From: Deltaproteobacteria bacterium
Lineage (GTDB): Bacteria > Desulfobacterota > GWC2-55-46 > UBA9637
NCBI GenBank assembly: GCA_038042015.1
Contig: JBBTFC010000068.1
Location: forward strand, 3,851-55,692
DNA: 51,842 nt
Direction: 5' to 3'
Part shown: positions 14,175 to 33,351 of the stretch, in pieces
How positions within the stretch are numbered: the first letter of the stretch is position 1
Layout of the letters: every line of letters starts with the position of its first letter
Translations under genes and position numbers: made by a program
Notes under the pieces: generated by a model
What the model saw: only the letters and a program-made list of their open reading frames with translations
Database searches by the model: none
What the model was told of the DNA's origin: nothing

Positions 14175-14264
14175 CTTAAAATAGCCTCCATATTTATGCA
14201 AAACCAGATTCTTATGAAAATTATACCATATTTTAAAAATATTTCAATAATAATTCCGCAACTC

Positions 14265-14969: not shown

Positions 14970-15904
14970 CCCTTTTCCTCTTGAAATACCTGTATCCTGT
15001 TGCCATCTATGGTATATATCCTTCCTTCCTTATCTATGAATATATATGAAGGATATGAAAGTTCCCCTTCTTTTACGCCAGGCCGTGATACGGCATGCTG
15101 AAAAACCCCTTTCTTATCAAAAACCAATATCCTGCCGGCATGCTGGTCCATTATGTATATAAGGCCGTTTTTATCCACTGCAAGGCTTGTAGGGAAGCGG
15201 AAGTTGTCTTTCTTATTTTCTCTGCTGCCAAATCTGGAAACAATACCTCCTTTATCGTCAAATATATAAACAACACCGGCAATTGCATCTATTGCATATA
15301 TCTCACCCTTATCATCCACCCTGACATCGGTAAATCCAAAAAAACCCTTATCTTTCACAGTAACTTCCCTTACAAATGCGCCTGTTTGTTCAACAATAAT
15401 AAGCCTTCTGTTTAACTTGTCAATAATATACAGCCTGTTGTCCGCATCTATCGCCATTCTGCCTGGCACAAACTGCTCCTTAGCTGAAGACACACCTGAG
15501 AGTGGAAATGATTTAACCACCTTCTTTTCAAGGTCAATAAATACTATCTCCCCTTTCCCCCTGTCCAGTATAAAAAAATGACCTTCCTTGTTTCTTACAA
15601 GGCTTGAGGGAAGCGTCATGGCCTCATTGGTTAATTCTGCCATGTATTTAAATTCCGAATCAAAAGAAACAAGCCTGCCATTCCCGCTGTCTGCTATATA
15701 GAGCCTTTTCTTAATCTCGTCAAAAAACAAACCGGATGGCTGTTTGAGCCTGCCCATAATCTCATCTCCGGTTATAACCGCAACAGTCCGTACCCCGCCT
15801 TTGTCCCCGGAAAATGCCGTGGTTGCAAAAGGCAAAATACAGAAAACAGAACACAGAAGAAATAATAAAAATTTTTGATTTTTGATTCCCATCTTATATC
15901 TCAT
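14966..15904 (-). CDS. NHL-repeat beta-propeller protein (secreted)
   Basis: It has a signal peptide and six repeats of the NHL kind (GRLVSFDSEF, GEIVFIDLEK, RRLIIVEQTG, GVVYIFDDKG, GRILVFDKKG, NRIQVFQ). Confidence 0.75.
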   Translation of the reverse strand: MRYKMGIKNQKFLLFLLCSVFCILPFATTAFSGDKGGVRTVAVITGDEIMGRLKQPSGLFFDEIKKRLYIADSGNGRLVSFDSEFKYMAELTNEAMTLPSSLVRNKEGHFFILDRGKGEIVFIDLEKKVVKSFPLSGVSSAKEQFVPGRMAIDADNRLYIIDKLNRRLIIVEQTGAFVREVTVKDKGFFGFTDVRVDDKGEIYAIDAIAGVVYIFDDKGGIVSRFGSRENKKDNFRFPTSLAVDKNGLIYIMDQHAGRILVFDKKGVFQHAVSRPGVKEGELSYPSYIFIDKEGRIYTIDGNRIQVFQEEKG

Positions 15905-15922
15905 AATCTTATCTCCCTAATT

Positions 15923-17155
15923 CTACATCTGATGGCATTGCTCGCATAATTCCCTGTCCTTCTCAAATCTCAGTACGGCCTTTTCAGGAGAACCCATAGG
16001 ATTGTGGCAGGTGCTGCAATTCATCGGCGTCTTGGAACGAGGGTCTATTATCTTTTCTCCGATTGGGTGCGTAAATTTACCTTGTGTAGAGTGACAGTTT
16101 TCCATTGCGCAGGTATCGTTGCCCTTTGTAAGAAAGAATTGGCTGTTTGAGCCATGTGATGTATGGCAATCCGAGCAAATGCCAAGCTTCGGATGTTTAT
16201 GATTGCTCTTTGCCACATATTCCTTTGTATCATTATGGCATTCATAACAAACCCTCGCCTCTTTATCTTTCAACAGATATTTCTCATCAGAGGCATGGGG
16301 ATTATGACAATTATTGCAAAGGTTGTCGGCTCCGCCTCCAATGAAGAAATGGCTATTTATTTTATTAAACCCGGCTAATACAGCCTCATGGCACTCTGTG
16401 CATAAACTGATACCGCTCTTTATAACAGATGCTGAACCAACAGGATGACAACTTGAGCATTTATTATCCTCAAACGGCTTATGCAGCGATGCCTTCATCA
16501 TGCCCTTTTTGTCGGAGGAATGCGGACTGTGGCAGCCAAGACAGTCGGTACCACTGACTTTATAACCCAGATGCGCCTTTGCAAATACCTCGCCGGTCCC
16601 GGGATGACAGCCTGCACAAAGGCTCTTTTTGTCCTTGATCAGCAAACCTTCCCTGTCCGATGAGTGCGGATTATGACAGACTATGCACCTCCCATTTTTA
16701 ACTTCAGGATGGACATTCTTCTTATTGATTATACTTTCCTTTGGATGACACGAAAAACACCCTTCCCCCCCTGCCTTCTTCAATAACCCCATTATATCTG
16801 ATGAATGCGCATCATGGCAGGAAAGACAATTTCCCTCTTCAACAGGCTTATGCACAACCTTACCCATGAAACCCTTTTTCTGGTCATGGCAGTTGTAGCA
16901 AAGGTCGCTGCCTGTGTATGATAAAAGGCCCGCATGCTTTGATGCATGAGGATTGTGGCACCATGTGCATTTACCATCTTTAACAGGTTGATGGACAGCT
17001 GCCTTATTAGTCAATTCCTCCGCTTTTTTTGAATGGCATTCAAGGCAAATTCCCCTGGTGTCTTTCACAGCCTTCGCATAAATTATCCCTGGCTGAAGGC
17101 CGAGAAAAATAACCAGACCAATTGTTAGCCATATTATATGTCCAGAGGACTTCAT
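15923..17155 (-). CDS. Multiheme cytochrome c, 16 heme-binding motifs
   Basis: It has an N-terminal signal/anchor helix. I counted 15 CXXCH motifs plus one CX4CH (CAMENCH, 16091-16111). The repeated unit C..CH.PH.S....L is the doubled-CXXCH type. Confidence 0.9.
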   Translation of the reverse strand: MKSSGHIIWLTIGLVIFLGLQPGIIYAKAVKDTRGICLECHSKKAEELTNKAAVHQPVKDGKCTWCHNPHASKHAGLLSYTGSDLCYNCHDQKKGFMGKVVHKPVEEGNCLSCHDAHSSDIMGLLKKAGGEGCFSCHPKESIINKKNVHPEVKNGRCIVCHNPHSSDREGLLIKDKKSLCAGCHPGTGEVFAKAHLGYKVSGTDCLGCHSPHSSDKKGMMKASLHKPFEDNKCSSCHPVGSASVIKSGISLCTECHEAVLAGFNKINSHFFIGGGADNLCNNCHNPHASDEKYLLKDKEARVCYECHNDTKEYVAKSNHKHPKLGICSDCHTSHGSNSQFFLTKGNDTCAMENCHSTQGKFTHPIGEKIIDPRSKTPMNCSTCHNPMGSPEKAVLRFEKDRELCEQCHQM

Positions 17156-17183
17156 TTCTTACATCGCTCCTTATATATAATTG

Positions 17184-17255
17184 CAGGAGAGGGGCTTGTC
17201 CCCTCCTGTGGTGGGACAGGCATCTTGCCTGTCATCACAGGCTGGAAGCCTGTGC
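17184..17255. other. Three consecutive GC-rich hairpins in the intercistronic spacer between the 26-heme and 16-heme genes
   Basis: The hairpins are caggagaggggcttgtcccctcctg (17184-17208), gacaggcatcttgcctgtc (17215-17233, 8-bp perfect stem) and cacaggctggaagcctgtg (17237-17255, 7-bp perfect stem). Confidence 0.8.
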
Positions 17256-17294
17256 CACTGGAGACCACAAGGATCTCTCCTACAATAATACCCC

Positions 17295-19232
17295 TTATAA
17301 CTTTTGATGGCACCTGTCGCATTCTCCTTTTTCAAAAGGAGTATGCATTATCTTATGTATAAGCCTTTTATCCTTTCCTGCATGAGGCTCATGACAGCCA
17401 AGACAGTCAGCGCCCTTTGTAGAGATATTCCCATGCGCCTTTACGAATTTTGCATCTCCCTGGTTTGCATGGCAATTATTGCACAATGTGTCACCCCTCG
17501 CTATCAATAGCCCTCTCTCATTTGAATAATGCGCAGAATGACATTTTTGGCAATCACCGTCTGCAACAGGCCTATGGGTAACAATATCCTTTTCCTTTAA
17601 ACTCTTATCAAATTCTGCATGACAAGAAAGGCACAAACTTTTAAGAGGACGCGGTAAAAGTCCCTTTATTTTACTGCCGTGCGGCCTGTGACAGTCAATA
17701 CATTTTTCTTCAAATACCGGCTTATGAGGATATTTTGCAATCTGAATGCCAATTTTAGTGTCTTTATGGCAATTATAACAAAGAGCGCCTTTCTCTTCCG
17801 TCAACTGTTTTGTATTATTGCTGGCATGCGCATCATGGCAGCTAAGACATTTGCCTTCCTTGAAAACAGGGTGTGTCCCTTGTTCCCCTATCTCTCTTAG
17901 CATACCGGAATGACATTTAAAACACAATTCCTCTTCCTTTAATAAAGCAAGTTTCTTTACCTCGCTTGCATGGGGGTTATGGCAGGCAGTACATGCCCCA
18001 TCCCTTACCTTGGGATGCCTTGTCACTTTATTAAATTTCTTTTTTTCCTGGCTGTGGCAGCTATAACACAGGTCTTCAACAGGTGAAACCAGTTCAAAAT
18101 TATAATCTGACGCATGGGCATCATGACACGGCAGGCAATTATTCTGAGCAATAGGGGCATGCGTTACCGTCTTAACAAAACCGTCCTTATTGTGACATTT
18201 ATAGCAAAGTTGGGCGCCAACTACACGAAGCGCATCCTTATTGTCAGAGGCATGTGGGTCATGGCAGCCGGAGCAATCTCCCTTGGCTATCGGAGTATGG
18301 GTAAACTTCTTTGCATGCCTCTTTTCTGTAGCTTTGTGGCAGCTATAGCAAAGCGGCTTTTCCGGTATCAAAAGCTCATTCTTCTGGTCAGTTGCGTGGG
18401 GACTATGACATGCTGTGCAGTCCCCTTTAAGAACAGGCGAATGAACAAGTGCCTTTTTAAACCCATTTTCCTGGGCAGTATGGCAAGTATAGCAAAGTTT
18501 ATCAGCTTGAAGTTTTGTTTTTAACGGTTCTTTTGAATCAGGAGAATTATGGCAGTCACTGCATTTTCTCTGGCCAAATGGCCCGTGATTGTATTCCCTT
18601 ACAAGCTTATCGCTTGACGAAGAGTGCGGAGTATGGCATGAAAGACAGTTGGTTCCTGCAACCTTATAATTAAAGTGTCCATCTGTAAATTTTACAGCAT
18701 TTACATCATGGCACTTTTCACACAACTTATTGCCTTTTTCAAGCAGGTTATAGCCATGCTCTGAGGAATGCGGATTATGACAGTTGTCGCAGCCGTCCGC
18801 AACTGCCTTGTGGATTGTCTTTTTTGCAAAAGGCCCCTTTGCATGGCAAAGATAGCATAGGTCATTTCCTGAAACCCTTGTAAGCCCTTTTAATTTTGAA
18901 GAGTGCGGATTATGACATTTAAGACATATACCTTGTGTTAACGGCGTATGCAGCGGCGCTTTTTCAAGTCTTGACCTGTCTTTTTCATGACACTGATAGC
19001 AGAGTTTTGCGTCTTTTTCCTTTAGTCTTAACGCCCCGATAAGGCCGTGCGGTATGTGACAAGCTTCGCAGTTGTTGTCAGCAAGGGGCTTATGCAGATT
19101 CCCCTCCTTGTATTTCAACATCTCTTTCTGGTGGCAATCCGAACAGGACTTTCTTACTATTCTTGTGCCCATACAACCTGACAGCATCAAGGTTGCAGCA
19201 AGGATTATCAACGAAAAACGAATAGGCTTCAA
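17295..19232 (-). CDS. Multiheme cytochrome c lipoprotein, 26 heme-binding motifs
   Basis: 645 aa with a TTG start and AGGAGG 8 nt upstream. The lipobox is ATLMLSGC. I counted 26 CXXCH motifs arranged as a roughly 45-aa repeating doubled-CXXCH unit. Confidence 0.9.
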   Translation of the reverse strand: MKPIRFSLIILAATLMLSGCMGTRIVRKSCSDCHQKEMLKYKEGNLHKPLADNNCEACHIPHGLIGALRLKEKDAKLCYQCHEKDRSRLEKAPLHTPLTQGICLKCHNPHSSKLKGLTRVSGNDLCYLCHAKGPFAKKTIHKAVADGCDNCHNPHSSEHGYNLLEKGNKLCEKCHDVNAVKFTDGHFNYKVAGTNCLSCHTPHSSSSDKLVREYNHGPFGQRKCSDCHNSPDSKEPLKTKLQADKLCYTCHTAQENGFKKALVHSPVLKGDCTACHSPHATDQKNELLIPEKPLCYSCHKATEKRHAKKFTHTPIAKGDCSGCHDPHASDNKDALRVVGAQLCYKCHNKDGFVKTVTHAPIAQNNCLPCHDAHASDYNFELVSPVEDLCYSCHSQEKKKFNKVTRHPKVRDGACTACHNPHASEVKKLALLKEEELCFKCHSGMLREIGEQGTHPVFKEGKCLSCHDAHASNNTKQLTEEKGALCYNCHKDTKIGIQIAKYPHKPVFEEKCIDCHRPHGSKIKGLLPRPLKSLCLSCHAEFDKSLKEKDIVTHRPVADGDCQKCHSAHYSNERGLLIARGDTLCNNCHANQGDAKFVKAHGNISTKGADCLGCHEPHAGKDKRLIHKIMHTPFEKGECDRCHQKL

Positions 19233-19258
19233 ACTTCTTTCCTCCTGATTACAGAAGA

Positions 19259-19286
19259 CAAGGGCGAACCTGTGTGTTCGCCCTTG
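19259..19286 (-). terminator. Probable intrinsic terminator or attenuating hairpin after the PPIase gene
   Basis: caagggcgaac-ctgtgt-gttcgcccttg has an 11-bp perfect stem. On the minus strand it is followed by TCTTCTGTAATC, which is only moderately U-rich. It separates the two envelope/cytochrome operons. Confidence 0.5.
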
Positions 19287-19303
19287 TTAGGGCAGACACG
19301 TAG

Positions 19304-20836
19304 CTACTTGCCTTGCAGTTTATCAAGTTCCTTCTGGTTTATCTCTATTGCCACTGTTTCTCTTAGCTGTTTGATATATCCATTTAATGCACCATTAAAC
19401 ATCTCCCTTCCAACTATCGTATCTATTTCGCTTCTCACCCTGTCAAACGGTATATATGCGCCCTTTTCAAGGCCGCGAAACTCTATAATAGCATAACCCG
19501 CCTCTGAAGAAAACGGCCCTAATATATCTCCTTCTTTTGCCCTCTGAATAGCCTTGTTAATGTCACCAGAGAGTTGATTTGTCTCCACCCAACCGATATC
19601 CCCTCCTTTTTCCCTGGAAGTGTCTACTGATTTTTCTCTTGCAAGATATGAAAAGTCGCCGCCTTTTTTAAGGTCATCAAATATGGTCTTCGCCTCTCCC
19701 TCATCCCCTAAATGTATCATCCTTAAATTTACCCTGTCAGACCCCCTGTAGTTTTCCTGATTTGCCTTATAATAGTCCAAAATATCGTTCTCATCAACTT
19801 TTATTGCAGGAAGAATGGCCTTTTTCTTAAACTGCTCTATAAGCTGCGGCTCCTTGTATTTCTTTATCTTTGCCTTAATCTGTTCATCATTCTCATAACC
19901 CATGTTCATTGCCTTATGGTCAAGAAGCTTATACAGGACAAGCTTATCTAAAACTTCCTTTTTTGCATCCTCACCCTGTGCCTTAGAAGAGATCAGTTCT
20001 CTTAATACATCTATGCCTAATATGGATTCACCATTCACATTTGCAACATCTTTGCCAAAAAGTTCGGTTTTATCACGGGAGAGTGCGCTTAAAACCTCAT
20101 TATCTATCTTCACCTTTGCCTTTTTTCTAAGTTCATCAAAATATTCCTTTTCCCTTTCTTTTGTCTTTATATCAAAAAAACCTTTTCTGATTACATCCCT
20201 GTCCGCAGCCGACATCTTCGGCGGCTCTTCCTTTTTATCCGAATCTTTTTTAACCTCTTCTTTTGCAGCATCTGTCTTTTCTTTTTCAGCCTTTTCTTTA
20301 TCGGCTTTTTCCTGAGCTTTTTCCTTTTCCTCTTCTTTCTTCTTTAATTGTTCATGGTAATAGTCTTCTATCTCTTTATCTTCCACTTTAATCTTATTTA
20401 ATATCTCTTCCTGACGGAGCTTGTCCAAAAACAGATTAAGGGCAAAGTTATCCATGACCATTATAAAATCTGCCTCTTTATCCAGCCCCAGATTTCTGGC
20501 CTCTATTGCCATAAGCTTATTGTCTATGAGCTCGCTTAGAAACTTGCCAAAATCCTGCATTGCAAAAGAGGTTTGCTCAGAAAGGTTCCTGCCTACCCGG
20601 CTGCTTTTGTGCAGTTTATCTATCTTGTCTAAAAACTCATCTTTTGTAATAATCTCATCCCCAACCCTGGCAATATACACCTCTTTTTTTGCGGAGGTAA
20701 AGGGCCAGAAACCGAAAGAATCTCCGGTCCCCCCTATAAAAACGAAAAAGATAAAAACCGTGGTCAGGAAAACAATATCCCTTAATCTTCTGATCTCTGA
20801 CTTATGCCTTCTGACTCCTGACTTCTTTATCATCAT
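19304..20836 (-). CDS. Membrane-anchored parvulin-type peptidyl-prolyl isomerase (SurA/PpiD-like)
   Basis: It has an N-terminal TM helix and a SurA-N-like helical region with a K/E-rich insert. The C-terminal PpiC domain shows LRMIHLGDEGEAKTIFDDLKKGGDFSYLAREKSVD...GGDIGWV. Confidence 0.8.
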   Translation of the reverse strand: MMIKKSGVRRHKSEIRRLRDIVFLTTVFIFFVFIGGTGDSFGFWPFTSAKKEVYIARVGDEIITKDEFLDKIDKLHKSSRVGRNLSEQTSFAMQDFGKFLSELIDNKLMAIEARNLGLDKEADFIMVMDNFALNLFLDKLRQEEILNKIKVEDKEIEDYYHEQLKKKEEEKEKAQEKADKEKAEKEKTDAAKEEVKKDSDKKEEPPKMSAADRDVIRKGFFDIKTKEREKEYFDELRKKAKVKIDNEVLSALSRDKTELFGKDVANVNGESILGIDVLRELISSKAQGEDAKKEVLDKLVLYKLLDHKAMNMGYENDEQIKAKIKKYKEPQLIEQFKKKAILPAIKVDENDILDYYKANQENYRGSDRVNLRMIHLGDEGEAKTIFDDLKKGGDFSYLAREKSVDTSREKGGDIGWVETNQLSGDINKAIQRAKEGDILGPFSSEAGYAIIEFRGLEKGAYIPFDRVRSEIDTIVGREMFNGALNGYIKQLRETVAIEINQKELDKLQGK

Positions 20837-20837
20837 C

Positions 20838-21431
20838 TTATTTTATTGTGTCTATCATCTCCCTGACAACTTTCTGCGTAAGCGCGGTTAGAGACCTCAC
20901 CTCGCCGAGGTCAAGGACAATAATATAATCATCCCCTTTTCTCTTATTTTGGCCTGACCATATGAGCTTGCCGGTATTAGAGTCAATCATCCTTGCGGTG
21001 ATTGCAACCGTTGGCACAGAATACGCGCCGCCAGCCTCGGCAAATTCTTCTACTGTGCCGGTCATAACAGCATCTACGCCAAGACGTTTGCCAAGGATCT
21101 TCAACCTTTCTATTTCAATCTCACCTATGGTGTCCATCCTTTCCTGTATCATAAACTGAACTATGTTGCCGGTCTCTTCTACATTAAACCTGTCGGTTTT
21201 AAACATCTCAGTGACAAATATATTGGCAACCACCTTGCCGGCATCCCGATACCCGCTTATATTGTAAAATGGAAGTATAGCCACCTTTTTTGAGGCATGG
21301 GGTGAAAGAGCCTCCCGTGACAAAACTGCGCAACCTACTATAAGCAACGGAGTTAAAAACAAGGTTAAGACCAAATTAAAAATCTTTAACCAGTATCCGG
21401 GATTCAACCTTGACAATGGCTCTTTATTCAT
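20838..21431 (-). CDS. Small lipoprotein, TolB-N/LpoB/CsgG-like fold predicted (paralog 1 of 3)
   Basis: The lipobox is LLIVGC. The core KKVAILPFYNISGYRDAGKVVANIF...LGVDAVMTGTVEEF...ITARMIDSNTGKLIW is shared with 24861-25439 and with the N-terminus of 23225-24748. Confidence 0.65.
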   Translation of the reverse strand: MNKEPLSRLNPGYWLKIFNLVLTLFLTPLLIVGCAVLSREALSPHASKKVAILPFYNISGYRDAGKVVANIFVTEMFKTDRFNVEETGNIVQFMIQERMDTIGEIEIERLKILGKRLGVDAVMTGTVEEFAEAGGAYSVPTVAITARMIDSNTGKLIWSGQNKRKGDDYIIVLDLGEVRSLTALTQKVVREMIDTIK

Positions 21432-21982
21432 AACTGAAATTCTTTAACAGCCTCTTCTAATCTTTTCTGCACATCTAAAATCTTTTTTATATGCTCATCC
21501 CCTTTGTTTACATTGTTAGAGCAAACTGCAAGTTCATCTGATGCTGTCTTAATTTTCCCCAATTTTAACTTAAGCTTTTCAATCATAATATTCAGGGCTT
21601 CAGCAAGTTCCCCGACCTCATCACCCTTACGGACTGAAAACCTTACAGTGAGATTACCCTCGCCAACTTTTTCCTTAATTTCCTTCTCCATCCTGTATAA
21701 AGGACCTGCTATCTTGTGAGGGAAAAAGAGGGCTATGATAAATGCTACAATAATGCCGATAATCAAAGCAATTACAATAGCCGGCAGAAGGAAATCCAGA
21801 AAATTTCTCGCCTGTATATGAAAGTGTCTGAATGACTGACCTATCTCCTGATTACTGTAAATGTAGAAGAAGGCAGAGAGTATCGCTGTGTTTATCAAGA
21901 CAATCAGCATTACCCTTACGAGCAACCTTAACTGCATATGCCTATTTATAGAGTAATTTATAACGCTTCTTCTATTCTGCAT
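21428..21982 (-). CDS. Two-TM HAMP-domain protein with no recognisable output domain
   Basis: It has two hydrophobic helices, a HAMP-like segment (IAGPLYRMEKEIKEKVGEGNLTVRFSVRKGDEVGELAEALNIMIEKL) and a short coiled coil. It overlaps the next gene by 4 nt. Confidence 0.65.
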   Translation of the reverse strand: MQNRRSVINYSINRHMQLRLLVRVMLIVLINTAILSAFFYIYSNQEIGQSFRHFHIQARNFLDFLLPAIVIALIIGIIVAFIIALFFPHKIAGPLYRMEKEIKEKVGEGNLTVRFSVRKGDEVGELAEALNIMIEKLKLKLGKIKTASDELAVCSNNVNKGDEHIKKILDVQKRLEEAVKEFQL

Positions 21983-22004
21983 TATGGCCTCCCTTTACTC
22001 GCTC

Positions 22005-22049
22005 CGCGAGAATTGCAAATCGCAAATTTTAAATTTTTATCTTACAATT
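22005..22049. repeat. AT-rich word repeat, family C copy 2
   Basis: cgcgagaattgcaaatcgcaaattttaaatttttatcttacaatttta contains the same 14-mer gcaaattttaaatt (22022-22035) as 9319-9332. Confidence 0.75.
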
Positions 22050-23222
22050 TTAGATATACGGTTCGCCTGTATGGCATGAGATGCACAGGTCTCTTCCAGA
22101 ATCCATCCTTATAAAATATCTTTTATTGCCGCCATGAGGGTTGTGGCATGTAACGCAGGTTATTACACCGCCTTCTATGGTCGGAAGAGCAGACGAAATT
22201 TTTGTTTTTAAGCCCTTGCTCCTCATCCCAACAGGGTGCGATGCGCCTTGCGGGTGACACTTAACACACGCATCTATCATGGAAACCCTTTCAGGAACCA
22301 AACCGAAACCATGCTTATCAATCTCAGCAGGCTCAGTGACTATTAAATATGCCTTCACAGGCTTATCGCTTAGAAGTTTAAGAAAAATATCTTTTGTACC
22401 TTTTATTTTAAAGGCATTGGCCTCTTTTATTTCAGGTAGTGTCTTATCTATAATCCTTGCGCCTTCCCCCTTATCACTAATTTTCATGGATGTATCAAGC
22501 ACAAAATTATTTGACACGGTTTCATTGCCGAATATATCTCTGGATATTACGCGATAATGGTACTGCTTGCCTGGCCTCAGCCCCGCTATTGTTATTTTGT
22601 GCCCATTTGCAAATATCTTCTCATATACTGCTGTTTCCCCATACCGGGGAGTTAATCCGTACTCCACAATTGAGTTGCACGGCTTATCTGTATCCCATGC
22701 AATTACTGCCTCAAGAAATACAGCCTGCCTTATTTCTGCTACTGCCACATTCCTGATGAGAGGCGGCTTCCGGTCATTATCCATAGAGGCATTCACCTGT
22801 GATGGTATAAGTTGCAAAGAATTAACTTTTACCTCATTCCCTGCGCTATCCTTTACTTTCAAATCCAACTGATATTTTCTGTCCCAGGACAGGTCCTTCA
22901 AAAAAAATATCTGTTCTCTCTGACCAGACAGGGAGGCAACCTCCCATACCCTGCCTGTTTTAGTAAACCCCTTTAAAATATGACACAGTTCACATTTATC
23001 CTCTTCTACAACAGAATGCCGGTATTGTAATGCCGCGATCCGCGCATATACATCATCCAGCTTAAGTTCTAAGGCCTTTGAGCCGGAATGGCAATCTCTG
23101 CAGCCGCCTGAGCCTCCATTTCTGCTCCAAGACAAGTCGCCGGGTGCCGCCAGTAGTAAAAACCATATAAAAACAACTACCGCAAGGACCAAAAGGGCTG
23201 ATGAAAGGATGTACTTACCCAT
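22050..23222 (-). CDS. Membrane-anchored pentaheme cytochrome c with a central FN3-like domain
   Basis: It has an N-terminal TM helix and five CXXCH motifs (CRDCH, CELCH, CVKCH, CVTCH, CISCH). The central AWDTDKPCNSIVEYGLTPRYGE...ITIAGLRPGKQYHYRVISRDIFGNE is the fibronectin-III / purple-acid-phosphatase-N type signature. Confidence 0.8.
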   Translation of the reverse strand: MGKYILSSALLVLAVVVFIWFLLLAAPGDLSWSRNGGSGGCRDCHSGSKALELKLDDVYARIAALQYRHSVVEEDKCELCHILKGFTKTGRVWEVASLSGQREQIFFLKDLSWDRKYQLDLKVKDSAGNEVKVNSLQLIPSQVNASMDNDRKPPLIRNVAVAEIRQAVFLEAVIAWDTDKPCNSIVEYGLTPRYGETAVYEKIFANGHKITIAGLRPGKQYHYRVISRDIFGNETVSNNFVLDTSMKISDKGEGARIIDKTLPEIKEANAFKIKGTKDIFLKLLSDKPVKAYLIVTEPAEIDKHGFGLVPERVSMIDACVKCHPQGASHPVGMRSKGLKTKISSALPTIEGGVITCVTCHNPHGGNKRYFIRMDSGRDLCISCHTGEPYI

Positions 23223-23224
23223 GC

Positions 23225-24748
23225 CTAAAAGTCCTCAGCCAATTGACCCTTTTGATCCGCCTTTGCAAACGGGGTTTTTCTGGAAAGGATGGATGGTATT
23301 GATTTGGTTAAGTTGAATGGATTGTCCGCATTATCTACAGCAGTAAGTGAAAATGCCATTGAATTTATATCAAATTCTGCTTCCACAAAGTATTCCACTT
23401 TTGGCGGAAACTCGCCTGTCCCTTCAATTGTCTTTACAGGCTTGCCTCCTCTATCAAGTATGGATAGCTTCCATGATTTTATATCATCATCAGGGCTATG
23501 CCTGAAAGTAAACAGCACCTTGTCTTCTATCTTATCCATATCAACTTCTATAACAGGGGGGGTGTTCTTTATCTTTAAGCTGTCGGTCAAAACGGCTTCA
23601 TTCCCAGCAATATCTTTTACCACAAACCTGTATGTATATTCTCCATCTGATGCCTGAACAAGTCTATCTGTTTCACCCCTCCAGATGAGTCCCTTGGGCA
23701 GCTTGCCATATCCTTTATCGCCCCTCATCATCTTCCCTTTTTTATCAAGGATTTCTATTTCCCATTCATCAATCTCATCAAAACTCAGAAGCCTGGGGGT
23801 AAATATTATATAACCCTTTCTCTGGGGGGCAAAAATTTTCCTGTTAATCGTCAAGCTAACCTTTGGCGGTGTGCTGTCAACAATCATCTTCCCTACGGCG
23901 CCAAATGGAAATAACGACATTGCCCCATCTCTTGCAACCACATCTACAGGATATATCCCTTCCTGAAGAGGCGCAGTCATAACCCCTTCATATTCCCCAT
24001 CCTCTCCTTTGACAAGGCTTATTTCAGCGCCATCAACTACAGCCTTTACCTCTTTTGGCTCCTCTGTGATAGACACTACCTTTACTCTTAACCCAACCCT
24101 TGCCCCACCCTTTGCTACAGTAGGAAATGTATCCGCCTTTTCTATCTCAAACGGACTTAGCCCCGTCTCTTTTATGAAAAACTGGGCTGCTATGCCCTTT
24201 ACAAGATCCTTTGCAACCCTTGAACTTAAGACATCAACTGATGTTATAAGACCAAATCCAAGAAGACCAACAAAATCCCGTTCTGTGTAAGAAATGGTGT
24301 CTGCCCATATTACGCTGCCGTCAATGGTATTAACCAAACGGGCTGTCACCGCCACGTTCATCCTGCCATTTACGTCAGAGAACTGGTTTATCGAACCAAC
24401 CAGCACAGCATCAACCCCAAGAACTTTTCCCATTTCTCTTACAGCCAGCCTTGTTACGCCGCCGGTATAACGGATCCTCCTCTTTGCAAGAAATTCCTCA
24501 ACAGTGTCGTCAATGGTTATAAACACCAACCCCTTGCCTCTCAATTCCTTTTTTATAAGCTCGGTAATAGTCTTTGTGGCAATAGGGTTTTCACTAAGAT
24601 TTTCAAACGGCAGAATAGAGATATCCTTTAAAATAATAGGCTGGCTTGAGTTATTACCAAGCCCATTACCTATTGCCGCAATTGGAGGAATGGCAAAAAC
24701 AAAAAGACAGGAGATGGAAGACAGAAGACAGCATAAGAAGATTCTCAT
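23225..24748 (-). CDS. Large secreted or lipoprotein: TolB-N/LpoB-like module (paralog 2) plus Ig-like (FlgD-Ig type) repeats
   Basis: The start is set at MRIFLCCLLSSISCLFVFA (24748). The N-terminal module is ISILPFENLSENPIATKTITE...LGVDAVLVGSINQF...VTARLVNTIDGSVIW. The C-terminal repeats are of the kind WEIEILDKKGKMM...WRGETD...DGEYTYRFVVKDIAGNE. Confidence 0.65.
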   Translation of the reverse strand: MRIFLCCLLSSISCLFVFAIPPIAAIGNGLGNNSSQPIILKDISILPFENLSENPIATKTITELIKKELRGKGLVFITIDDTVEEFLAKRRIRYTGGVTRLAVREMGKVLGVDAVLVGSINQFSDVNGRMNVAVTARLVNTIDGSVIWADTISYTERDFVGLLGFGLITSVDVLSSRVAKDLVKGIAAQFFIKETGLSPFEIEKADTFPTVAKGGARVGLRVKVVSITEEPKEVKAVVDGAEISLVKGEDGEYEGVMTAPLQEGIYPVDVVARDGAMSLFPFGAVGKMIVDSTPPKVSLTINRKIFAPQRKGYIIFTPRLLSFDEIDEWEIEILDKKGKMMRGDKGYGKLPKGLIWRGETDRLVQASDGEYTYRFVVKDIAGNEAVLTDSLKIKNTPPVIEVDMDKIEDKVLFTFRHSPDDDIKSWKLSILDRGGKPVKTIEGTGEFPPKVEYFVEAEFDINSMAFSLTAVDNADNPFNLTKSIPSILSRKTPFAKADQKGQLAEDF

Positions 24749-24860
24749 TCTCGATTTTTGCCCCGCATGGAATACTGGGGTGATTTTTAGCTTCCTTTGT
24801 CTGTTCACAACTCCCCTCCTCCTGGTTTTCAAAGCTAAGGCATTAAAACACAATAAACCG

Positions 24861-25439
24861 CTACAATAGGGTATCCAGCGCGCTCTTCACTGCCCTTCTT
24901 GTCAATTCGCTTCTATCTACCTCCTCAATACCTATCAACTTTCTCAAAACACTCCTGCTCGTCTCGGTGGCCTTTGCCTGCCATAGGATTATACCTGAAC
25001 CTGTATCAATCATCCTGGCGCCAATTGACACAATACTGCCGCCACTACCCGCGCCTGAATATTCATCTACACTCCCAAGTATTACAGCCTGCACACTCAA
25101 TTTCTCTCCAATCAGTTTTAGCGTCTCCTTATCTACCGGCACAGCCCTGCCTTCTTCAACGCCAGCCTCTCTGAATATTACACTAAGAACCTTTGTAACC
25201 TCTCCCTGCTCCACCACCTCAAAGACCCCCCTGGACATAAGGTCTACAATCAAGGAGTTTCTTATCCTTTCACCCGCATACCTGTCATCACTAAGATTAT
25301 TGAACGGCAGCACCGCTATTTTCTTTATGTATGAAAAGTTGGCTGTCGGATTAATATACCTTACTGTAGACCCGCAGCCTCCAATAAAGATAAGGAAAAA
25401 TAAAACCACACCCCCCCTTTTCACATAACTATTATACAT
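24861..25439 (-). CDS. Small lipoprotein, TolB-N/LpoB/CsgG-like fold predicted (paralog 3 of 3)
   Basis: The lipobox is LIFIGGC. The core is KKIAVLPFNNLSDDRYAGERIRNSL...LSVQAVILGSVDEY...IGARMIDTGSGIILW. Confidence 0.65.
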   Translation of the reverse strand: MYNSYVKRGGVVLFFLIFIGGCGSTVRYINPTANFSYIKKIAVLPFNNLSDDRYAGERIRNSLIVDLMSRGVFEVVEQGEVTKVLSVIFREAGVEEGRAVPVDKETLKLIGEKLSVQAVILGSVDEYSGAGSGGSIVSIGARMIDTGSGIILWQAKATETSRSVLRKLIGIEEVDRSELTRRAVKSALDTLL

Positions 25440-25495
25440 TATTCCTCCTTTTATGCAAGGTTTTTTATACTGTTATTAATATCCCGCCCTCTCGC

Positions 25496-27685
25496 CTATA
25501 GCCTCAATGATGCGCTCGCAAAAACAGAGTCAGTATGGTCATTCGTTACATTATCTGTTTTTGTGCCGCTATAGCCGACACGTAGGCTAAGCCTTGAAAC
25601 CGGCGTCCAACTGATATCAGCCCCCCTGTTTATAACATCCCCTGAAATACCATATCTTGCGCTTGTCTGTATATTCCTGGACGGAAGCCATGTAATGTTA
25701 TAGGTTTGCGAGCTGGTTGGTTCTATGCCTATTGAAGTTGAAAGATATATATTCCTTGTTGGTGTATATGAAATGACCGTATTGAGCGACTGGCTGCTGG
25801 AATCTGTCTCTTTCCCCGCAGTTTCAGTAGCGCTGTCTGAGGTTCCAGCATTTACAATTATAGTCATGGACCTCCATGGAATAAGATTCAGATTTCCGTA
25901 AGAATTTATAGAGTTTGTCTTAGAGTTTGCCTTAATGTCCTTTGATTCACTCATACTGCTTCCAAGACCAAGGTCAACACCTTTGTAAAGATTCATAAAT
26001 AAATTGCCGCTTATTGAATTGGTCTTTGAATTTGTTTCTCCGCCTGTTAAGGCCTCGCTGTAACCATAATTCAAGCTTGCATTTAATGTCGGAAGCGGAC
26101 TTGACGAGATGGACAGGGAATAACTGTCTGCGCCGGTCTCTGTTGAACCGGTCGTTGATTTTGAACTGGCATTTGATGTGCTATAACTTGCGGAAAGATT
26201 AAGATACTGAGGCACAATAACAGAACTCAGTCCTGCCCCTTGGCCTATATTAGTTGTATCAGTGTCATTGATATTAGGGTCATTGAAGTCCTGGGTAGCA
26301 TGGTCGTAGGTAAGATTATAACTCATGTTCAGCCGTGTAAGCGGCGAAAATGAAAGACCAAAACCGCCAAAATCTCTGGTTGTAGTAAATCTAACTATCT
26401 CTGTCGGCGTTGAAGTAAGATGCCCTATGGCCTCAATCTCGGTCACATTTATTGTCCCCGCTCCGGCAGGGAATTGGGTGTTTACAACCTTAAAATATAG
26501 GGCGCTGGTCTCTGATGAAAAGGTAAAGACAATTCCCGTTCCTGTCAACCCCCCCGGGCTACTGATTACTGGATTATAAGATGTTGTTACACCTATTGAT
26601 GCCCAATTTGTCCCGTCGCTGCTTGTATATAATTGCCAGCCAAAGTTATTAGAAGAAACATAGGCGGCAATATTCGGATCTGCTGTGTTTATGTAAAGAT
26701 TTATCTTGAACACAGATTGAGATGTTGTAAGTTTGATGCCTATATTTCTATCTAAGCCATTCAGGTCTATCCCTGCGGATGAAGTAGTATTATTGTCTAT
26801 CAAAGCAGGTGTACTGGCAAGTGGGTCAACAGTGGGTGTACTATCTAAAGCAAACAGGCCATCAGATGCTGTACGCTTTGCGTCAAATTGTTGAGGCGCA
26901 CCCAGACTTTTAGTTGTTGTTTCCGACTGACTATAGCCCATATTTGCATTTGTATTTATCTTCTTATCCCAAAATGACCTGACAAGACCCGCTGACACAA
27001 GGTGTAATTGAGTCTCGTTTCTGGTTTTGCCGACTCTATCTATTACAATAGGGTCTGAAAATGAATAATTCAGGTTAGTTGCTGTTTCAAGAAAACTAAA
27101 ACCATAAGCTGTATTAAAGCCCTGATTGATGGACATAGTATCTAATTTATGAGGATCGAGATAATCGTTATTTGTTGCCTGATTATAAAAAAGCGAGACA
27201 GAAGGCCATCTGTCGCCAGGTAGGATAAAAGAGGCATTCATATTGGAGATTGAAATAGGGTCCCCGCCAGGGGGCAGACTCTCATTTCTTGTATAACTGA
27301 GGGATAGATAATATAAATCAACGACAGGCGGTGTATAGTTTAGAAAAAACATCGGAAATATGTCCGATGTCTCTTTTCCATTTACAATAAATCTCGACAA
27401 CCGCACATTGGCCAAAATCATTATTGTGGAGGTCGGGGCATGGCTCAGGCCAAATGTATAACTTTCATTATAGCTGGAACTTTCAGTAGTCTTACCGCCG
27501 CTGGATGTAGTAGTCTTTTGATAACTCATATCTGCGCTGGCATCTATAGCAAATACAGCATTTGGTCTCACAAGGCTTATAAACGCTATTACAAAGAAAA
27601 GTAAGGCAGTTAGACCTGCTCCGCAAGACCCTTTTCCTATATTATAAGTAGAGACGTCCGCGTGGGGCGTCTCTACGGAGTTCAT
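25496..27685 (-). CDS. Large outer-membrane-type beta-barrel protein with an inserted discoidin (F5/8 type C)-like domain
   Basis: The signal peptide is LTALLFFVIAFISLVRPNAVFA. The sequence is S/T/N/G/Y-rich with alternating-hydrophobic strands throughout. Residues encoded at about 26420-26878 form a distinct domain (IDLNGLDRNIGIKL...FGWQLYTSSDGTNWASIG...ALYFKVVN...INVTEIEAIG). The start is placed at ATG 27685, 1 nt after the upstream stop. Confidence 0.7.
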   Translation of the reverse strand: MNSVETPHADVSTYNIGKGSCGAGLTALLFFVIAFISLVRPNAVFAIDASADMSYQKTTTSSGGKTTESSSYNESYTFGLSHAPTSTIMILANVRLSRFIVNGKETSDIFPMFFLNYTPPVVDLYYLSLSYTRNESLPPGGDPISISNMNASFILPGDRWPSVSLFYNQATNNDYLDPHKLDTMSINQGFNTAYGFSFLETATNLNYSFSDPIVIDRVGKTRNETQLHLVSAGLVRSFWDKKINTNANMGYSQSETTTKSLGAPQQFDAKRTASDGLFALDSTPTVDPLASTPALIDNNTTSSAGIDLNGLDRNIGIKLTTSQSVFKINLYINTADPNIAAYVSSNNFGWQLYTSSDGTNWASIGVTTSYNPVISSPGGLTGTGIVFTFSSETSALYFKVVNTQFPAGAGTINVTEIEAIGHLTSTPTEIVRFTTTRDFGGFGLSFSPLTRLNMSYNLTYDHATQDFNDPNINDTDTTNIGQGAGLSSVIVPQYLNLSASYSTSNASSKSTTGSTETGADSYSLSISSSPLPTLNASLNYGYSEALTGGETNSKTNSISGNLFMNLYKGVDLGLGSSMSESKDIKANSKTNSINSYGNLNLIPWRSMTIIVNAGTSDSATETAGKETDSSSQSLNTVISYTPTRNIYLSTSIGIEPTSSQTYNITWLPSRNIQTSARYGISGDVINRGADISWTPVSRLSLRVGYSGTKTDNVTNDHTDSVFASASLRL
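27648..27676. repeat. GC-rich palindrome, GTAGAGRCG family, copy 3 (inside the 5' end of the barrel CDS)
   Basis: gtagagacgtccgcgtggggcgtctctac has outer arms forming a near-perfect inverted repeat. It is translated as VETPHADVST, upstream of the signal peptide. Confidence 0.8.
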
Positions 27686-27686
27686 G

Positions 27687-29129
27687 TCATCTTTCAAGCA
27701 ATAGCGCCCCATATGGACTCTTTCCAACAAAGAGTTCTTTTAACACCCTTTCCCCTATCGGGTCAAGAAGAGAGACCGTATTATCTCCATAATTTGTTAC
27801 ATAAAGGCGGTTTCTTTTTTCATCGCCCGCAAGCCCTGTCGGCATTATTCCAACCGGTATAGTCCTTGTAACAACATCCTGAGAGTTAAAAAATGTAAGT
27901 GTATTTGCAGCGGTATTTGCGACAAAAAGTCTCTTGCTGAATCCCTGCATACCCCTTTTAGGAGGGCCTTCGACAGATATGGTTGCAACCACTTTTCTTA
28001 AAGAAGGGGAGATAATGCTTATCCTGTTGGATCCTTCGTTAAAGACATATATCTTATCTTTGCCGGCATCATCTTTGCCGACAAAAACACCTGTCGGCCT
28101 GTTATCCACTGTAATATTAGCAACCAGTGTGTCATCAATGGCGTTTATGATGCTTAGATTGTTTGATCTCTCGTTTGTCACGTAAACTTCCTTCCTGACA
28201 GCGTCCGCAGCAATGCCTGAAGGGCCTATCCCAACAGCAATGCTCTTTAATGTGCGCTTTGCTACAGTACTCACCACTGTAACATCATTGGATATCCGGT
28301 TTGCAATATAAAGTTTGCCTTCAATTAAATTGTTATCATCAGGTATAATTACTATATCTACCGGTAATATTCCTGCTGTCAGATAGATTGTATCCAGCAC
28401 AGAAAAGCGGGTTACATCCACTACAGATATATTCCTTGAAGCGGAGTTTACAACATAAAGCCTGTCCTGTGTGGCATTTAATGCCATACCCATTGGTCTG
28501 TCGCCAACTGTTACAGCGCCTATAACCCTTTCAAGGCTTCTGTCTATTATGGATATATAGTTTGACGCGCTGTTTGATATAAACAAGAGCAGCTCTCTTG
28601 CCGAAGGTATCTGTGTTTCTATTTCTATAGATGGCTGAAAAATATGCCCCTTTTCAATAGATTTCTCAGTGTCCCATACAAGAGAAACTGCTGAGATTTC
28701 CTTTCTTTGCAACCTGATATTCGATTTTATCACAACCTCTCCACCAGGCTGCGGAAGGGCAAGGCTTACATGACCATCTCTTCCCATGACAGATGCCCTT
28801 GAAATGATTAGTTTCAGACCTTTATACTGACCAGGCTCTACAGCCGCTTCTTTTAAGAGTATCTGCCTGTCAATCAAACCAGTGGACATTATGTCAACCG
28901 GACTATCTATCAGATTTATCCATCTGTTGTCTTCTGCCTGAAGTTTAATTTCAGATATTGTGAAGGCTATATTCGGAGGGGCAAGCGATGTTGAGTGCAT
29001 ATAAATAAGAAGCCTTGCAGCGGAAGAAGAGGATAGTGGTGGTGAGGTATCTATCAGCCATTTCTCGCAAGAGATAAATAGCAAAGAAGACAGCAGAAGA
29101 AAAAAAAGATATATCCTTTTAAAGGTCAC
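27687..29129 (-). CDS. Lipoprotein with DUF4382-like N-domain and YVTN-type beta-propeller
   Basis: It has a GTG start with GAGG upstream, and the lipobox LLFISC. Repeats include LYVVNSASRNISVVD, LYIANRISNDVTVVS, VYVTNERSNNLSIIN, IYVFNEGSNRISIIS, LFVANTAANTLTFFN and LYVTNYGDNTVSLLD. Confidence 0.75.
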   Translation of the reverse strand: MTFKRIYLFFLLLSSLLFISCEKWLIDTSPPLSSSSAARLLIYMHSTSLAPPNIAFTISEIKLQAEDNRWINLIDSPVDIMSTGLIDRQILLKEAAVEPGQYKGLKLIISRASVMGRDGHVSLALPQPGGEVVIKSNIRLQRKEISAVSLVWDTEKSIEKGHIFQPSIEIETQIPSARELLLFISNSASNYISIIDRSLERVIGAVTVGDRPMGMALNATQDRLYVVNSASRNISVVDVTRFSVLDTIYLTAGILPVDIVIIPDDNNLIEGKLYIANRISNDVTVVSTVAKRTLKSIAVGIGPSGIAADAVRKEVYVTNERSNNLSIINAIDDTLVANITVDNRPTGVFVGKDDAGKDKIYVFNEGSNRISIISPSLRKVVATISVEGPPKRGMQGFSKRLFVANTAANTLTFFNSQDVVTRTIPVGIMPTGLAGDEKRNRLYVTNYGDNTVSLLDPIGERVLKELFVGKSPYGALLLER

Positions 29130-32257: not shown

Positions 32258-33313
32258 TTATTTTGATACCGTCTGAGGCTTTTTGGGCGATGTATGACAT
32301 CTATTACAATCAGTAAATGGAAATGCTATCTTGCCATGACATCTGCCGCAAAATTTGTTATCAACAATCATACCTACCATTGTTATGTTGTTTGCCCCCC
32401 TCACAGGGATAAATATCTTTGGATGACAGATTTCACACTTTAGCCACCATGTATGGATATAATGGGGAAAGACAACGTCTTTTACAAAATTGCTTTTAGT
32501 CTCTATCAAAATATTAAAATCAAAAGGTGGAATATCCTCGGCATCAGGGTCTAATGAGTGTCTTGGTGTAAGGGCATTCTCTTTCACAGCCTTTGCCCAA
32601 TCTATCAGACCATATTTATCCTTTGGAAGCACGTTTGAGGCAAGGGCTGCAGGGTGCCAAGCGCCCCCCAGTTTGTATGATGCGCTGGGAGAACCTGATT
32701 TCTTCGGATCTCCTGTTCCCGCCAGATTGCCCTTTGTATCCAAATACAGGGCACTCTTCGGATCATCTGGATTAAGAAAGGGAGATGTCTTTTTTTCTTT
32801 TTCTTCGGAGGAAATAACTGTTATGCCGGTAGGATTAAAAATGATAAGAGGAGCGGATGTCTTTTTTTCTTTTTCTTCGGAGGGAATAACCGGTAAGGTT
32901 ACCGCAGGCGCTACAGACGTTCTTTCAGGCTCTGGTCTGACAACCGTGATATTTGTTTCTGTATTTTCTGCTATAGGTAAAGCAGGCACAGCAATAGGTT
33001 TTTGGGACGGCACTGGAGCAGGGGCAGGTGCTACTACTATCACTGATTTTACCTCAACAGGGGGGGCAGCAGGTTTTGGCGCTTCTGCCACTACCTCTAC
33101 AGCAGTAGGAGAAGGCGCTGTAGCAGATTTTTCTGCCTCTGCTGTTTCTTCCATCCCTGTAGTAACAACAGAAGGTTCTGTTGTTACTACGGGGGTATTG
33201 GCTGACATGGCAGGTTCTGTAAAAGGTTTTGGATTTGAACAACCAATAAAGACTGTGAAGATAACCAGTGGAATAACCCTGGAAATACATTTCATTAAGT
33301 AAAGCCTATTCAT
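32258..33313 (-). CDS. Lipoprotein with Pro/Ala/Val-rich linker and C-terminal c7-type triheme module
   Basis: The lipobox is FTVFIGC. A roughly 130-aa P/A/V/T/E-rich linker carries a duplicated SEEKEKKTS unit. The C-terminus is FPHYIHTWWLKCEICHPKIF...FCGRCHGKIAF...CNRCH. Confidence 0.8.
   Translation of the reverse strand: MNRLYLMKCISRVIPLVIFTVFIGCSNPKPFTEPAMSANTPVVTTEPSVVTTGMEETAEAEKSATAPSPTAVEVVAEAPKPAAPPVEVKSVIVVAPAPAPVPSQKPIAVPALPIAENTETNITVVRPEPERTSVAPAVTLPVIPSEEKEKKTSAPLIIFNPTGITVISSEEKEKKTSPFLNPDDPKSALYLDTKGNLAGTGDPKKSGSPSASYKLGGAWHPAALASNVLPKDKYGLIDWAKAVKENALTPRHSLDPDAEDIPPFDFNILIETKSNFVKDVVFPHYIHTWWLKCEICHPKIFIPVRGANNITMVGMIVDNKFCGRCHGKIAFPFTDCNRCHTSPKKPQTVSK
32784..32890. repeat. 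Direct 35-nt repeat with 72-nt period inside the CDS
   Basis: gatgtctttttttctttttcttcggagg[a/g]aataac occurs at 32784-32818 and 32856-32890. It encodes the duplicated (I/S)SEEKEKKTS segment. Confidence 0.85.
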
Positions 33314-33351
33314 CTTTTTCTCCTTTCATACTCTCATATCCTAATCTATAG

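Follow-up and report, generated by a model that had tools for sequence, protein, structure and literature searches.

The stretch of DNA analysed here (the window, 51.8 kb) lies on contig JBBTFC010000068.1 of the Deltaproteobacteria bacterium assembly GCA_038042015.1. It contains eight minus-strand genes for envelope proteins, g1 to g8, which encode a β-propeller lipoprotein, a large outer-membrane β-barrel, three related lipoproteins, a pentaheme cytochrome, a HAMP-domain protein and a peptidyl-prolyl isomerase (PPIase). It is very likely that these genes do not constitute a separate machine but are a part of the known and widespread Osc/Oet-type cluster (GSU2500-GSU2493) for outer-membrane and extracellular cytochromes. 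They open a minus-strand cluster of 14 genes with short gaps (12498-29129; Table 1). The parts list, the homology to the osc/oet cluster and the predicted localisation signals of the products are established by the comparisons below.

Homology and collinearity with the osc/oet cluster

GTDB species genomes, one per species, were scanned with an alignment of the 26-heme cytochrome encoded downstream of g8. There were 361 relatives, and 80 loci were kept (individual loci carry L numbers). The loci span Desulfobacterota, Nitrospirota, Acidobacteriota, Ignavibacteriales, Anaeromyxobacter, Eisenbacteria, Gemmatimonadota and others, and cultured hosts among them are Geomonas silvestris, Geomonas oryzae and Geobacter sp. 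AOG1. The window proteins were mapped onto the loci by phmmer and hmmsearch.

The order propeller, barrel, lipoprotein, lipoprotein, PPIase, 26-heme cytochrome, 16-heme cytochrome and NHL propeller recurs across many phyla in 53 non-redundant barrel loci, to which all counts out of 53 refer. In the canonical form, a gene for an OmcS-like hexaheme precedes the propeller gene. The window has the same order with three inserted genes, and the order is also found in G. silvestris, G. oryzae and Geobacter sp. AOG1.

All eight gene families match their counterparts in three Geobacterales comparison loci (L027, G. silvestris; L031, Geobacter sp. AOG1; and L039), with phmmer or profile E-values from 1e-11 to 1e-131. 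The phmmer E-values are 1e-27 to 5e-38 for g1 against the gene at the same position, 1e-14 to 1e-32 for the lipoproteins overall, 1e-11 to 2e-25 for the PPIase and 1e-24 to 1e-32 for the NHL propeller. For g3 the E-values are 3e-14 to 8e-23, and for g4 against the second lipoprotein 1e-16 to 4e-23. The 26-heme protein matches those of Geomonas and Geobacter sp. AOG1 at about 1e-127 to 1e-131. The barrel profile matches the Geomonas barrels over the full length at 3e-50 to 8e-61, the latter in G. oryzae. The barrel of Geobacter sp. AOG1 was at first missed by hmmsearch, a false negative, as hhalign of the g2 family against the AOG1 barrel gave a probability of 99.7%. The gene directly upstream of the block was tested in G. 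silvestris, and it is OmcS (E 1.5e-120 to PDB 6EF8).

The osc genes are named as companions of omcS. In papers that summarise Shen et al. 2025 (Cell Chem Biol 32:239; summarised in PMC13194489, bioRxiv 10.1101/2025.11.06.686851), they are read as the folding and secretion machinery of OmcS nanowires: in Geobacter, OscH is linked to OmcS folding, OscE, OscF and OscG to secretion, and OscD to filament morphology. In the same summary, OscI is GSU2495 and OscJ is GSU2494. GSU2495 is a 26-heme protein of ~70 kDa. Consecutive numbering fits the propeller as OscD, the barrel as OscE, the two lipoproteins as OscF and OscG, the PPIase as OscH, the 26-heme and 16-heme cytochromes as OscI and OscJ, and the NHL propeller as OscK. 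A further preprint notes that OmcE/OmcS regions carry a β-propeller lipoprotein and a large β-barrel "putatively functioning as a secretion or anchor".

The cluster also has a second name, oet, from work on syntrophic sulfate reducers. In SEEP-SRB1, Geobacter, Anaeromyxobacter and other groups, Skennerton et al. 2017 (PMC5539420) reported an operon whose four core genes encode a PPIase, two cytochromes with 16 and 26 hemes, and a six-bladed propeller, the counterpart of the NHL propeller here. Murali et al. 2023 (PMC10553843) named the cassette OetABI and interpreted it as a porin-cytochrome conduit, with OetA as a periplasmic cytochrome, OetI as the outer-membrane barrel and OetB as an extracellular lipoprotein cytochrome. 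The Eth-SRB1 lineage of L016 belongs to a family discussed in that study.

The first-pass annotation of this DNA had stated that the eight genes match no known machine, and that a confident match of the barrel and lipoproteins to a characterised system would overturn this. The barrel, the lipoproteins, the propeller, the PPIase and what it called the next operon are homologous to and collinear with the described osc/oet cluster. Because the parts match a characterised cluster, the statement is refuted on its own terms.

The co-occurrence of the barrel with cytochromes can be tested only in four loci that were looked up by the barrel first (L001, L003, L005 and L006; barrels 22-46% identical). 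Cytochrome genes are neighbours in all four. L001, L005 and L006 share the order NHL, YVTN, barrel, two or three LpoB-like lipoproteins, PPIase, 25-26-heme protein of ~650 aa, 16-heme protein of ~420 aa and more cytochromes, with the 16-heme gene of L001 truncated where that locus ends. L003, the 46%-identical relative, shows a minimal form (8611-17171): a DUF4382-YVTN propeller and the barrel precede a different propeller of the PQQ-like type, then an octaheme and a pair of c7-type trihemes. LpoB-like lipoproteins, the PPIase and the 26-heme gene are all missing from it.

Several points weigh against the assignment to the osc/oet cluster. The 51.8 kb contain no OmcS/GSU2501-type hexaheme, and each of the 12 Geobacter genomes that carry the block contains one. 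The 80 kept loci were found via the 26-heme gene, and this way of finding them biases them towards cytochrome co-occurrence. The osc gene names were mapped with the loci of Geomonas and Geobacter sp. AOG1 and, for G. sulfurreducens, with the published gene numbering. The functional claims for Osc are second-hand, from papers summarising Shen et al. 2025, and the cluster in this organism is known from its sequence alone.

Table 1. Genes and other features of the osc/oet-type cluster in the window, in the order of transcription.
Feature	Coordinates	Strand	Assignment and evidence
g1, DUF4382-like N-domain + 7-blade YVTN β-propeller lipoprotein	27687-29129	-	OscD, GSU2500 position
g2, large outer-membrane β-barrel, 729 aa from ATG 27685	25496-27685	-	OscE/OetI, GSU2499 position
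g3, small LpoB/GNA1162-like lipoprotein	24861-25439	-	OscF, GSU2498 position; lipobox IGGC
g4, LpoB-like module + Ig-like repeats	23225-24748	-	OscG-like, GSU2497 position
g5, pentaheme c-type cytochrome with tandem FN3 between hemes 2 and 3	22050-23222	-	5 CXXCH
g6, HAMP protein with two transmembrane segments, 184 aa, no output domain	21428-21982	-	HAMP E 4e-9
g7, third LpoB/GNA1162/CsgG-like lipoprotein paralog	20838-21431	-	lipobox IVGC; 31% identity to g3
g8, membrane-anchored PpiD-like SurA_N + parvulin PPIase	19304-20836	-	OscH, GSU2496 position
GC-rich hairpin in the spacer between g8 and the 26-heme gene	19258-19287	-	12-bp stem; minimum free energy -30.6 kcal/mol, z -3.35
26-heme lipoprotein cytochrome	17295-19232	-	OscI (GSU2495); 26 CXXCH; lipobox LSGC
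15/16-heme periplasmic cytochrome	15923-17155	-	OscJ (GSU2494); 15 CXXCH + 1 CX3-4CH
NHL six-bladed β-propeller	14966-15904	-	OscK, GSU2493 position; Pfam NHL E 2.4e-15
Lipoprotein with C-terminal triheme c7 domain, lineage-specific tail gene	14265-14969	-	Cytochrome_C7 E 4e-12
228-aa lipoprotein, no assigned function	13515-14201	-	lipobox IFSC
Response regulator + HD-GYP (cyclic di-GMP phosphodiesterase type), last gene	12498-13505	-	Response_reg E 1e-30; HD_5 E 5e-36

Conserved components

The barrel protein g2 has no match among Pfam or NCBIfam families. In its AlphaFold2 model (mean pLDDT, the predicted local distance difference test score, 83), 11 strands are followed by a β-sandwich insert at ~281-411 and then by ~17 strands, and a barrel of roughly 28-30 strands is predicted. 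A homolog with 63% identity to g2 carries the discoidin domain PF00754. The description of g2 as a barrel of about 730 aa with a discoidin-like insert thus holds. The best fold match in the PDB is MtrB (6r2q_B) with a template-modelling (TM) score of 0.42-0.47, and TonB-dependent receptors, LptD and ushers score ~0.25. In the search for distant relatives, a word-indexed profile search gave just two more proteins, and an exhaustive profile search was then used. It yielded 1302 representative sequences at E <= 1e-3 and 650 at E <= 1e-30. The named representatives among the distant relatives bear only labels of Nitrospirota metagenome-assembled genomes (MAGs), none of Geobacter.

Shorter barrels of ~556-568 aa are present in Desulfobacteraceae/Eth-SRB1 MAGs (L014, 3613-5295; L016, 3708-5378; also L015). 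The L016 barrel matches g2 by phmmer at E 3e-19. The L014 and L016 barrels match the profile in two pieces that skip ~237-390, which indicates that they are without the discoidin-like insert; L015 is grouped with them by its length alone. The insert is dispensable, because these barrels are without it.

The lipoproteins g3 and g7 and the N-terminal domain of g4 are mutually paralogous, with E-values of 1e-21 (between g3 and g7), 4e-18 and 1e-9. Together with the lipoboxes of g3 and g7, this agrees with the earlier description of three paralogous lipoprotein modules. The likely start of g4 is the ATG at 24748, and its open reading frame (ORF) is open up to 24853. Homologs of g3 directly follow the barrel gene in 53/53 loci, and g4 matches a protein of the Eth-SRB1 locus L016 at E 9e-67. 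The three-lipoprotein form is found in many Desulfobacterota loci.

Among the three lipoproteins, the generic Pfam LpoB model passes its cut-off in g4 only (E 1e-6; 29.1 bits versus a cut-off of 22.3), and g4 also contains Big_13 and FlgD_ig. The scores for the LpoB equivalog TIGR02722 (cut-off 110.55) are 22.5 bits for g4, 18.2 for g7 and 15.3 for g3, and the GNA1162 scores are below the Pfam cut-off. With the Pfam CsgG model, g7 reaches 17.1 bits versus a cut-off of 20.8, and g3 and g4 show no match. The barrel shows no Pfam match to GfcD/YjbH at E <= 0.1. Membership in CsgG, GfcD/YjbH, FlgO or LPP20 was rejected, as nothing scored above the cut-off, and the earlier analogy to CsgG- and GfcD/YjbH-type systems is not supported as a statement of family membership.

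In g1, seven YVTN repeats (TIGR02276 E 1.5e-46) follow the N-terminal domain, and the lipobox is FISC. The YVTN propeller and the lipoprotein nature are thus as the first-pass annotation had them, and its DUF4382 domain is just a below-threshold match in g1 itself (E 0.006) and clear in homologs. For g8, the domains SurA_N_2 (Pfam E 4e-11) and Rotamase (Pfam E 2.5e-14) and the match to PRK10788 (E 1.5e-26) bear out a PpiD-like parvulin. Homologs of g8 are present in 49/53 loci, and homologs of the NHL propeller in 53/53.

The count of 26 CXXCH motifs confirms the 26-heme gene after g8. The 26-heme protein is assigned to OetB from its lipobox and the published description. The 16-heme cytochrome has a signal peptide and is assigned to OetA. 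Its gene always follows the 26-heme gene in the mapped loci, and in 15 loci (L022, L042, L044, L047, L049, L050, L056, L066, L067, L072-L075, L078 and L080) the two are fused collinearly as a "42-heme" protein. These fusions are 1012-1478 aa long (most about 1,000-1,250) and contain 40-44 CXXCH motifs. In most of them, the N-terminal half is collinear with the 26-heme protein and the C-terminal part with the 16-heme protein. Their hosts include Acidobacteriota, Eisenbacteria and Gemmatimonadota. Because the two cytochromes are fused in these loci, they are likely to act as one heme chain.

Boundaries of the cluster

The eight minus-strand ORFs exist as first annotated, and their junctions are as described: the g1 stop is at 27687 and the barrel ATG at 27685, the g4 stop at 23225 and the g5 ATG at 23222, and the g7 stop at 20838 and the g8 ATG at 20836. 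The 4-nt ATGA overlap at 21428-21431 is also present. Of the export signals ascribed to every product, the lipoboxes and the HAMP transmembrane segments stand; the N-terminal hydrophobic segment of g5 resembles, in many homologs, a cleavable signal peptide more than a transmembrane anchor.

The first-pass annotation ended the operon at the hairpin between g8 and the 26-heme gene. The hairpin itself is real. It has no U-tract, is not among the predictions of a terminator scan, and is missing from the equivalent spacer of L007, the closest relative (75% identical). It is therefore poor evidence for an operon end, and its reading as a terminator is not supported. The PPIase and 26-heme genes overlap in L001, and across the relatives L001, L005 and L006 they overlap or are spaced by 57-81 nt. 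The proposed operon boundary is probably not real, and the 14 genes probably form one unit. The cluster is bordered upstream by a 344-nt divergent spacer to SpoIID and downstream by a 625-nt gap before dnaX.

The tail of the cluster is lineage-specific. The c7 gene is kept at its tail position in L007, L087 and L089. The 228-aa lipoprotein is conserved in L007 only (E 1e-83), and the gene for the response regulator with HD-GYP also closes the cluster in L007 (E 7e-180) and L087 (E 3e-155). L087, whose g5 is 35% identical to that of the window, has a nearly identical gene order, lacking just the 228-aa lipoprotein. In L087 (GCA_027016745.1), System II cytochrome c maturation genes (ResB-like and CcsA-like) are at 2297-4071, directly upstream of the propeller gene of the cluster.

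The window contains other cytochrome genes upstream of the cluster, beyond SpoIID/QueA. A second minus-strand set at 32258-37896 encodes a c7-domain lipoprotein, a PpcA-like triheme (141 aa), a 420-aa two-c7 hexaheme, a TPR protein and a dihaem cytochrome c fused to an ethylbenzene-dehydrogenase-like (EB_dh) domain. At 38629-40968 are a second EB_dh-domain protein on the plus strand and mono- and dihaem class-I c-type cytochromes on the minus strand.

Absence of OmcS-family genes

An OmcS-family gene is present in 36/53 barrel loci, and 17/53 have none. Well-covered loci among the latter are the window, L087, L089 and L003. In the window, about 24 kb on either side were scanned for OmcS-family genes. 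In six frames, no ORF has the CxxCH[TSA]MH signature. A hidden Markov model (HMM) of the OmcS family was made from 55 OmcS-like ORFs. Its top score in the window is 38.7 bits, the background of multi-heme proteins, versus 176-287 bits for true members elsewhere. The hexaheme at 33934-35196 was rejected as OmcS-like; it consists of two c7-type triheme domains and matches GSU1996 fragments (3ov0) at E 1e-40. The pentaheme g5 was rejected as a divergent relative of OmcS, as its 25.5 bits on the OmcS-family HMM are background and its PDB matches are only to heme motifs and FN3.

In Desulfobacterota loci with three lipoproteins (L018, L021, L051-L053, L055, L056, L060, L062, L069 and L076), the OmcS-related gene usually encodes a pentaheme of ~350-400 aa with CxxCHTMH at the N-terminus. 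It is located downstream of the NHL gene, not upstream of the barrel, and is followed in some loci by an octaheme and a YVTN propeller. The OmcS-related pentaheme of L076 matches 6ef8 at E 6e-7. A 454-aa heptaheme in L005 has the CxxCHSMH motif, although phmmer found no match for it in the PDB.

Because no OmcS-family gene is found within 24 kb on either side, the client of the cluster is either the product of a gene in another part of the genome or a cytochrome of the cluster itself, the 26/16-heme pair or g5. A specific version of the latter is that an OmcS-less Osc/Oet machine operates here and that g5, with g6, is a lineage-specific client or surface terminus, a new and possibly polymeric type of exported or anchored cytochrome, with the response regulator with HD-GYP providing control by cyclic di-GMP. 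It is unlikely that this version is correct.

The accessory genes g5 and g6

The gene pair g5 and g6, the third lipoprotein and the response regulator with HD-GYP are lineage-specific accessories. The Geobacter block is without g5, and g5 is thus an accessory of the cluster in the window. The five CXXCH motifs of g5 are invariant across 23 homologs. Its AlphaFold2 model shows confident β-sandwiches at 91-297, and the top fold matches are tandem FN3 pairs, in agreement with the earlier description of a pentaheme and FN3 protein. The family has about 85 full-length members from uncultured Deltaproteobacteria and Nitrospirota. g5 may correspond to "OetF" in the literature. The HAMP match of g6 confirms the earlier description of a HAMP protein with two transmembrane segments and no output domain.

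g6 adjoins a g5 homolog in 9/9 loci, including one without any osc genes. The pair is inside osc-type clusters in the window, L007, L001, L009, L010, L087 and L089, and at the cluster end in L051. In L088 (10001-11791), homologs of g5 and g6 are alone, without osc genes, beside genes for a sugar epimerase, a glycosyltransferase and a PilZ-domain protein. Because L051 holds both the OmcS-related pentaheme and the g5-g6 pair, the pair is an add-on, not a strict replacement of OmcS.

HAMP domains are signal-conversion modules. It is conceivable that g5, g6 and the terminal response regulator with HD-GYP form a redox-sensing regulatory module, which would tune the machine or cyclic di-GMP in biofilms to the periplasmic or extracellular redox state and would not be structural parts or cargo. 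The signal-conversion nature of HAMP, the invariable adjacency of g5 and g6, their isolated occurrence near PilZ and polysaccharide genes in L088, and the conservation of the response regulator at the cluster end in the relative with a 35%-identical g5 are consistent with such a module. However, g6 has no output domain, the cluster encodes no histidine kinase, L089 has g5 and g6 but no HD-GYP gene, and for the FN3-bearing "OetF" the literature proposes that it binds the matrix or recognises a partner. The chance that the regulatory module is the right explanation is small.

Comparison with known systems and possible functions

The cluster in the window resembles the osc cluster in that the same gene families are in the same order, each is homologous to the versions in Geomonas and Geobacter sp., and a true OmcS gene is beside the block in G. 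silvestris. It differs in that it has no OmcS/GSU2501-type hexaheme, contains a third lipoprotein paralog and has Ig-like repeats in the second lipoprotein. Other differences are the FN3-pentaheme and HAMP pair inserted ahead of the PPIase, and the tail of a c7 lipoprotein, a 228-aa lipoprotein and the response regulator with HD-GYP.

Compared with OetABI, the window has the barrel, the 16-heme protein with a signal peptide, the 26-heme protein with a lipobox, the PPIase and the six-bladed propeller. The relation of g2 to the OetI reference (OEU57520.1) is a probable one and indirect, by way of the Eth-SRB1 locus L016, which is homologous in g4 (E 9e-67) and in the barrel (E 3e-19 by phmmer, and in two profile segments). 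An FN3-bearing cytochrome, "OetF", is noted in clusters of syntrophic sulfate reducers. In contrast to the window, those clusters usually carry OmcX, OmcS-like or Apc2a cytochromes, and the Desulfobacteraceae/Eth-SRB1 barrels are without the discoidin-like insert present in the window barrel.

The two functional readings offered by the first-pass annotation are two published hypotheses. The reading that it favoured, an electron conduit formed together with the operon of the 26-heme gene, equals the published OetABI model. The pentaheme protein would in that reading be a candidate donor at the inner-membrane side. Its alternative, secretion or anchoring of a surface polymer, equals the Osc model, but the polymer there is the OmcS filament, not an unrelated adhesin.

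The roles of the parts can be proposed from the literature or inferred. The PpiD-like PPIase g8 (OscH) would chaperone cytochrome clients in the periplasm. The barrel g2 (OscE/OetI), with g3, g4 and g7 (OscF, OscG and an extra paralog), would form an outer-membrane channel or anchor. The propellers g1 (OscD) and NHL (OscK) may be periplasmic or surface scaffolds. The 26-heme lipoprotein and the 16-heme cytochrome would form one long heme chain feeding electrons to or through the channel. The secretion and conduit models do not conflict. Outer-surface cytochromes may be both mounted and electrically connected by the machine, whose built-in wire would be the 26/16-heme chain.

The alternative that the cluster is purely a porin-cytochrome conduit of the OetABI type, in which the 16-heme and 26-heme proteins thread or dock on the barrel, the other parts only build or stabilise it, and no filament is secreted, is not exclusive of the favoured Osc/Oet explanation and, taken alone, is less likely than not. 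It is a published interpretation (Murali et al. 2023, PMC10553843). The block persists without an OmcS-family gene in 17/53 loci, including the well-covered window, L087, L089 and L003, although OmcS-family genes may be elsewhere in those genomes. The lipobox of the 26-heme protein is as expected of an outer-membrane cytochrome, and the fusion to one 42-heme chain in 15 loci fits a conduit. Geobacter genetics, as cited second-hand in the summarising papers, points to a role in secretion or assembly.

The comparison with MtrCAB (6R2Q) bears on the same alternative. Both systems have a large plug-less barrel encoded beside periplasmic and lipoprotein multi-heme cytochromes, and MtrB is the best fold match of g2, at a TM score of 0.42-0.47 versus ~0.25 for other large barrels. 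However, the score is below 0.5 and may reflect barrel size alone, and the window barrel has no sequence relation to MtrB or other known conduit porins. The MtrB barrel has 26 strands. The window barrel is predicted to have ~28-30 strands and a β-sandwich insert, and its partners have 16 and 26 hemes, not 10. The window also adds a PPIase, propellers and LpoB-like lipoproteins, and known conduits such as MtrCAB are not known to need dedicated parts of these kinds.

The small α/β modules of g3, g4 and g7 weakly match CsgG, LpoB and GNA1162 and likewise accompany an outer-membrane export or assembly machine. In contrast to CsgG, the channel here would be a separate monomeric barrel, not a lipoprotein ring. 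That the cluster secretes or anchors a non-cytochrome surface polymer or adhesin in a CsgG- or GfcD/YjbH-like manner, with the cytochromes merely as neighbours, is very improbable: the sub-threshold similarity of g3, g4 and g7 to CsgG/GNA1162 and the Ig, FN3 and discoidin-like domains, typical of surface proteins, are in its favour, but multi-heme cytochromes are in or adjacent to the block in 53/53 barrel loci, including the four barrel-first loci, CsgG scores are below the cut-off, YjbH/GfcD matches are absent at E <= 0.1, and no polysaccharide or amyloid subunit genes are in the cluster.

Implications

The window adds no new machine; it holds a variant of a known cluster. For annotation, the label of hypothetical protein can be replaced by that of an OscD-H/OetI homolog for the barrel, the lipoproteins, the propellers and the PPIase.

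The osc/oet genes are among the most widespread gene sets linked to extracellular electron transfer, with 1302 barrel representatives and the 26-heme gene in at least 361 species genomes of many phyla. Their function is disputed between nanowire secretion or assembly and a porin-cytochrome conduit. Bearing on this dispute are the well-covered clusters without OmcS, the fusion of the 26-heme and 16-heme cytochromes in 15 loci, and the g5-g6 module, which is portable between contexts. If the OmcS-less version of the machine is true, such clusters would show that the shared task of the machine lies in placing the 26/16-heme chain and further cytochromes on the outer membrane, and not in making OmcS nanowires specifically.

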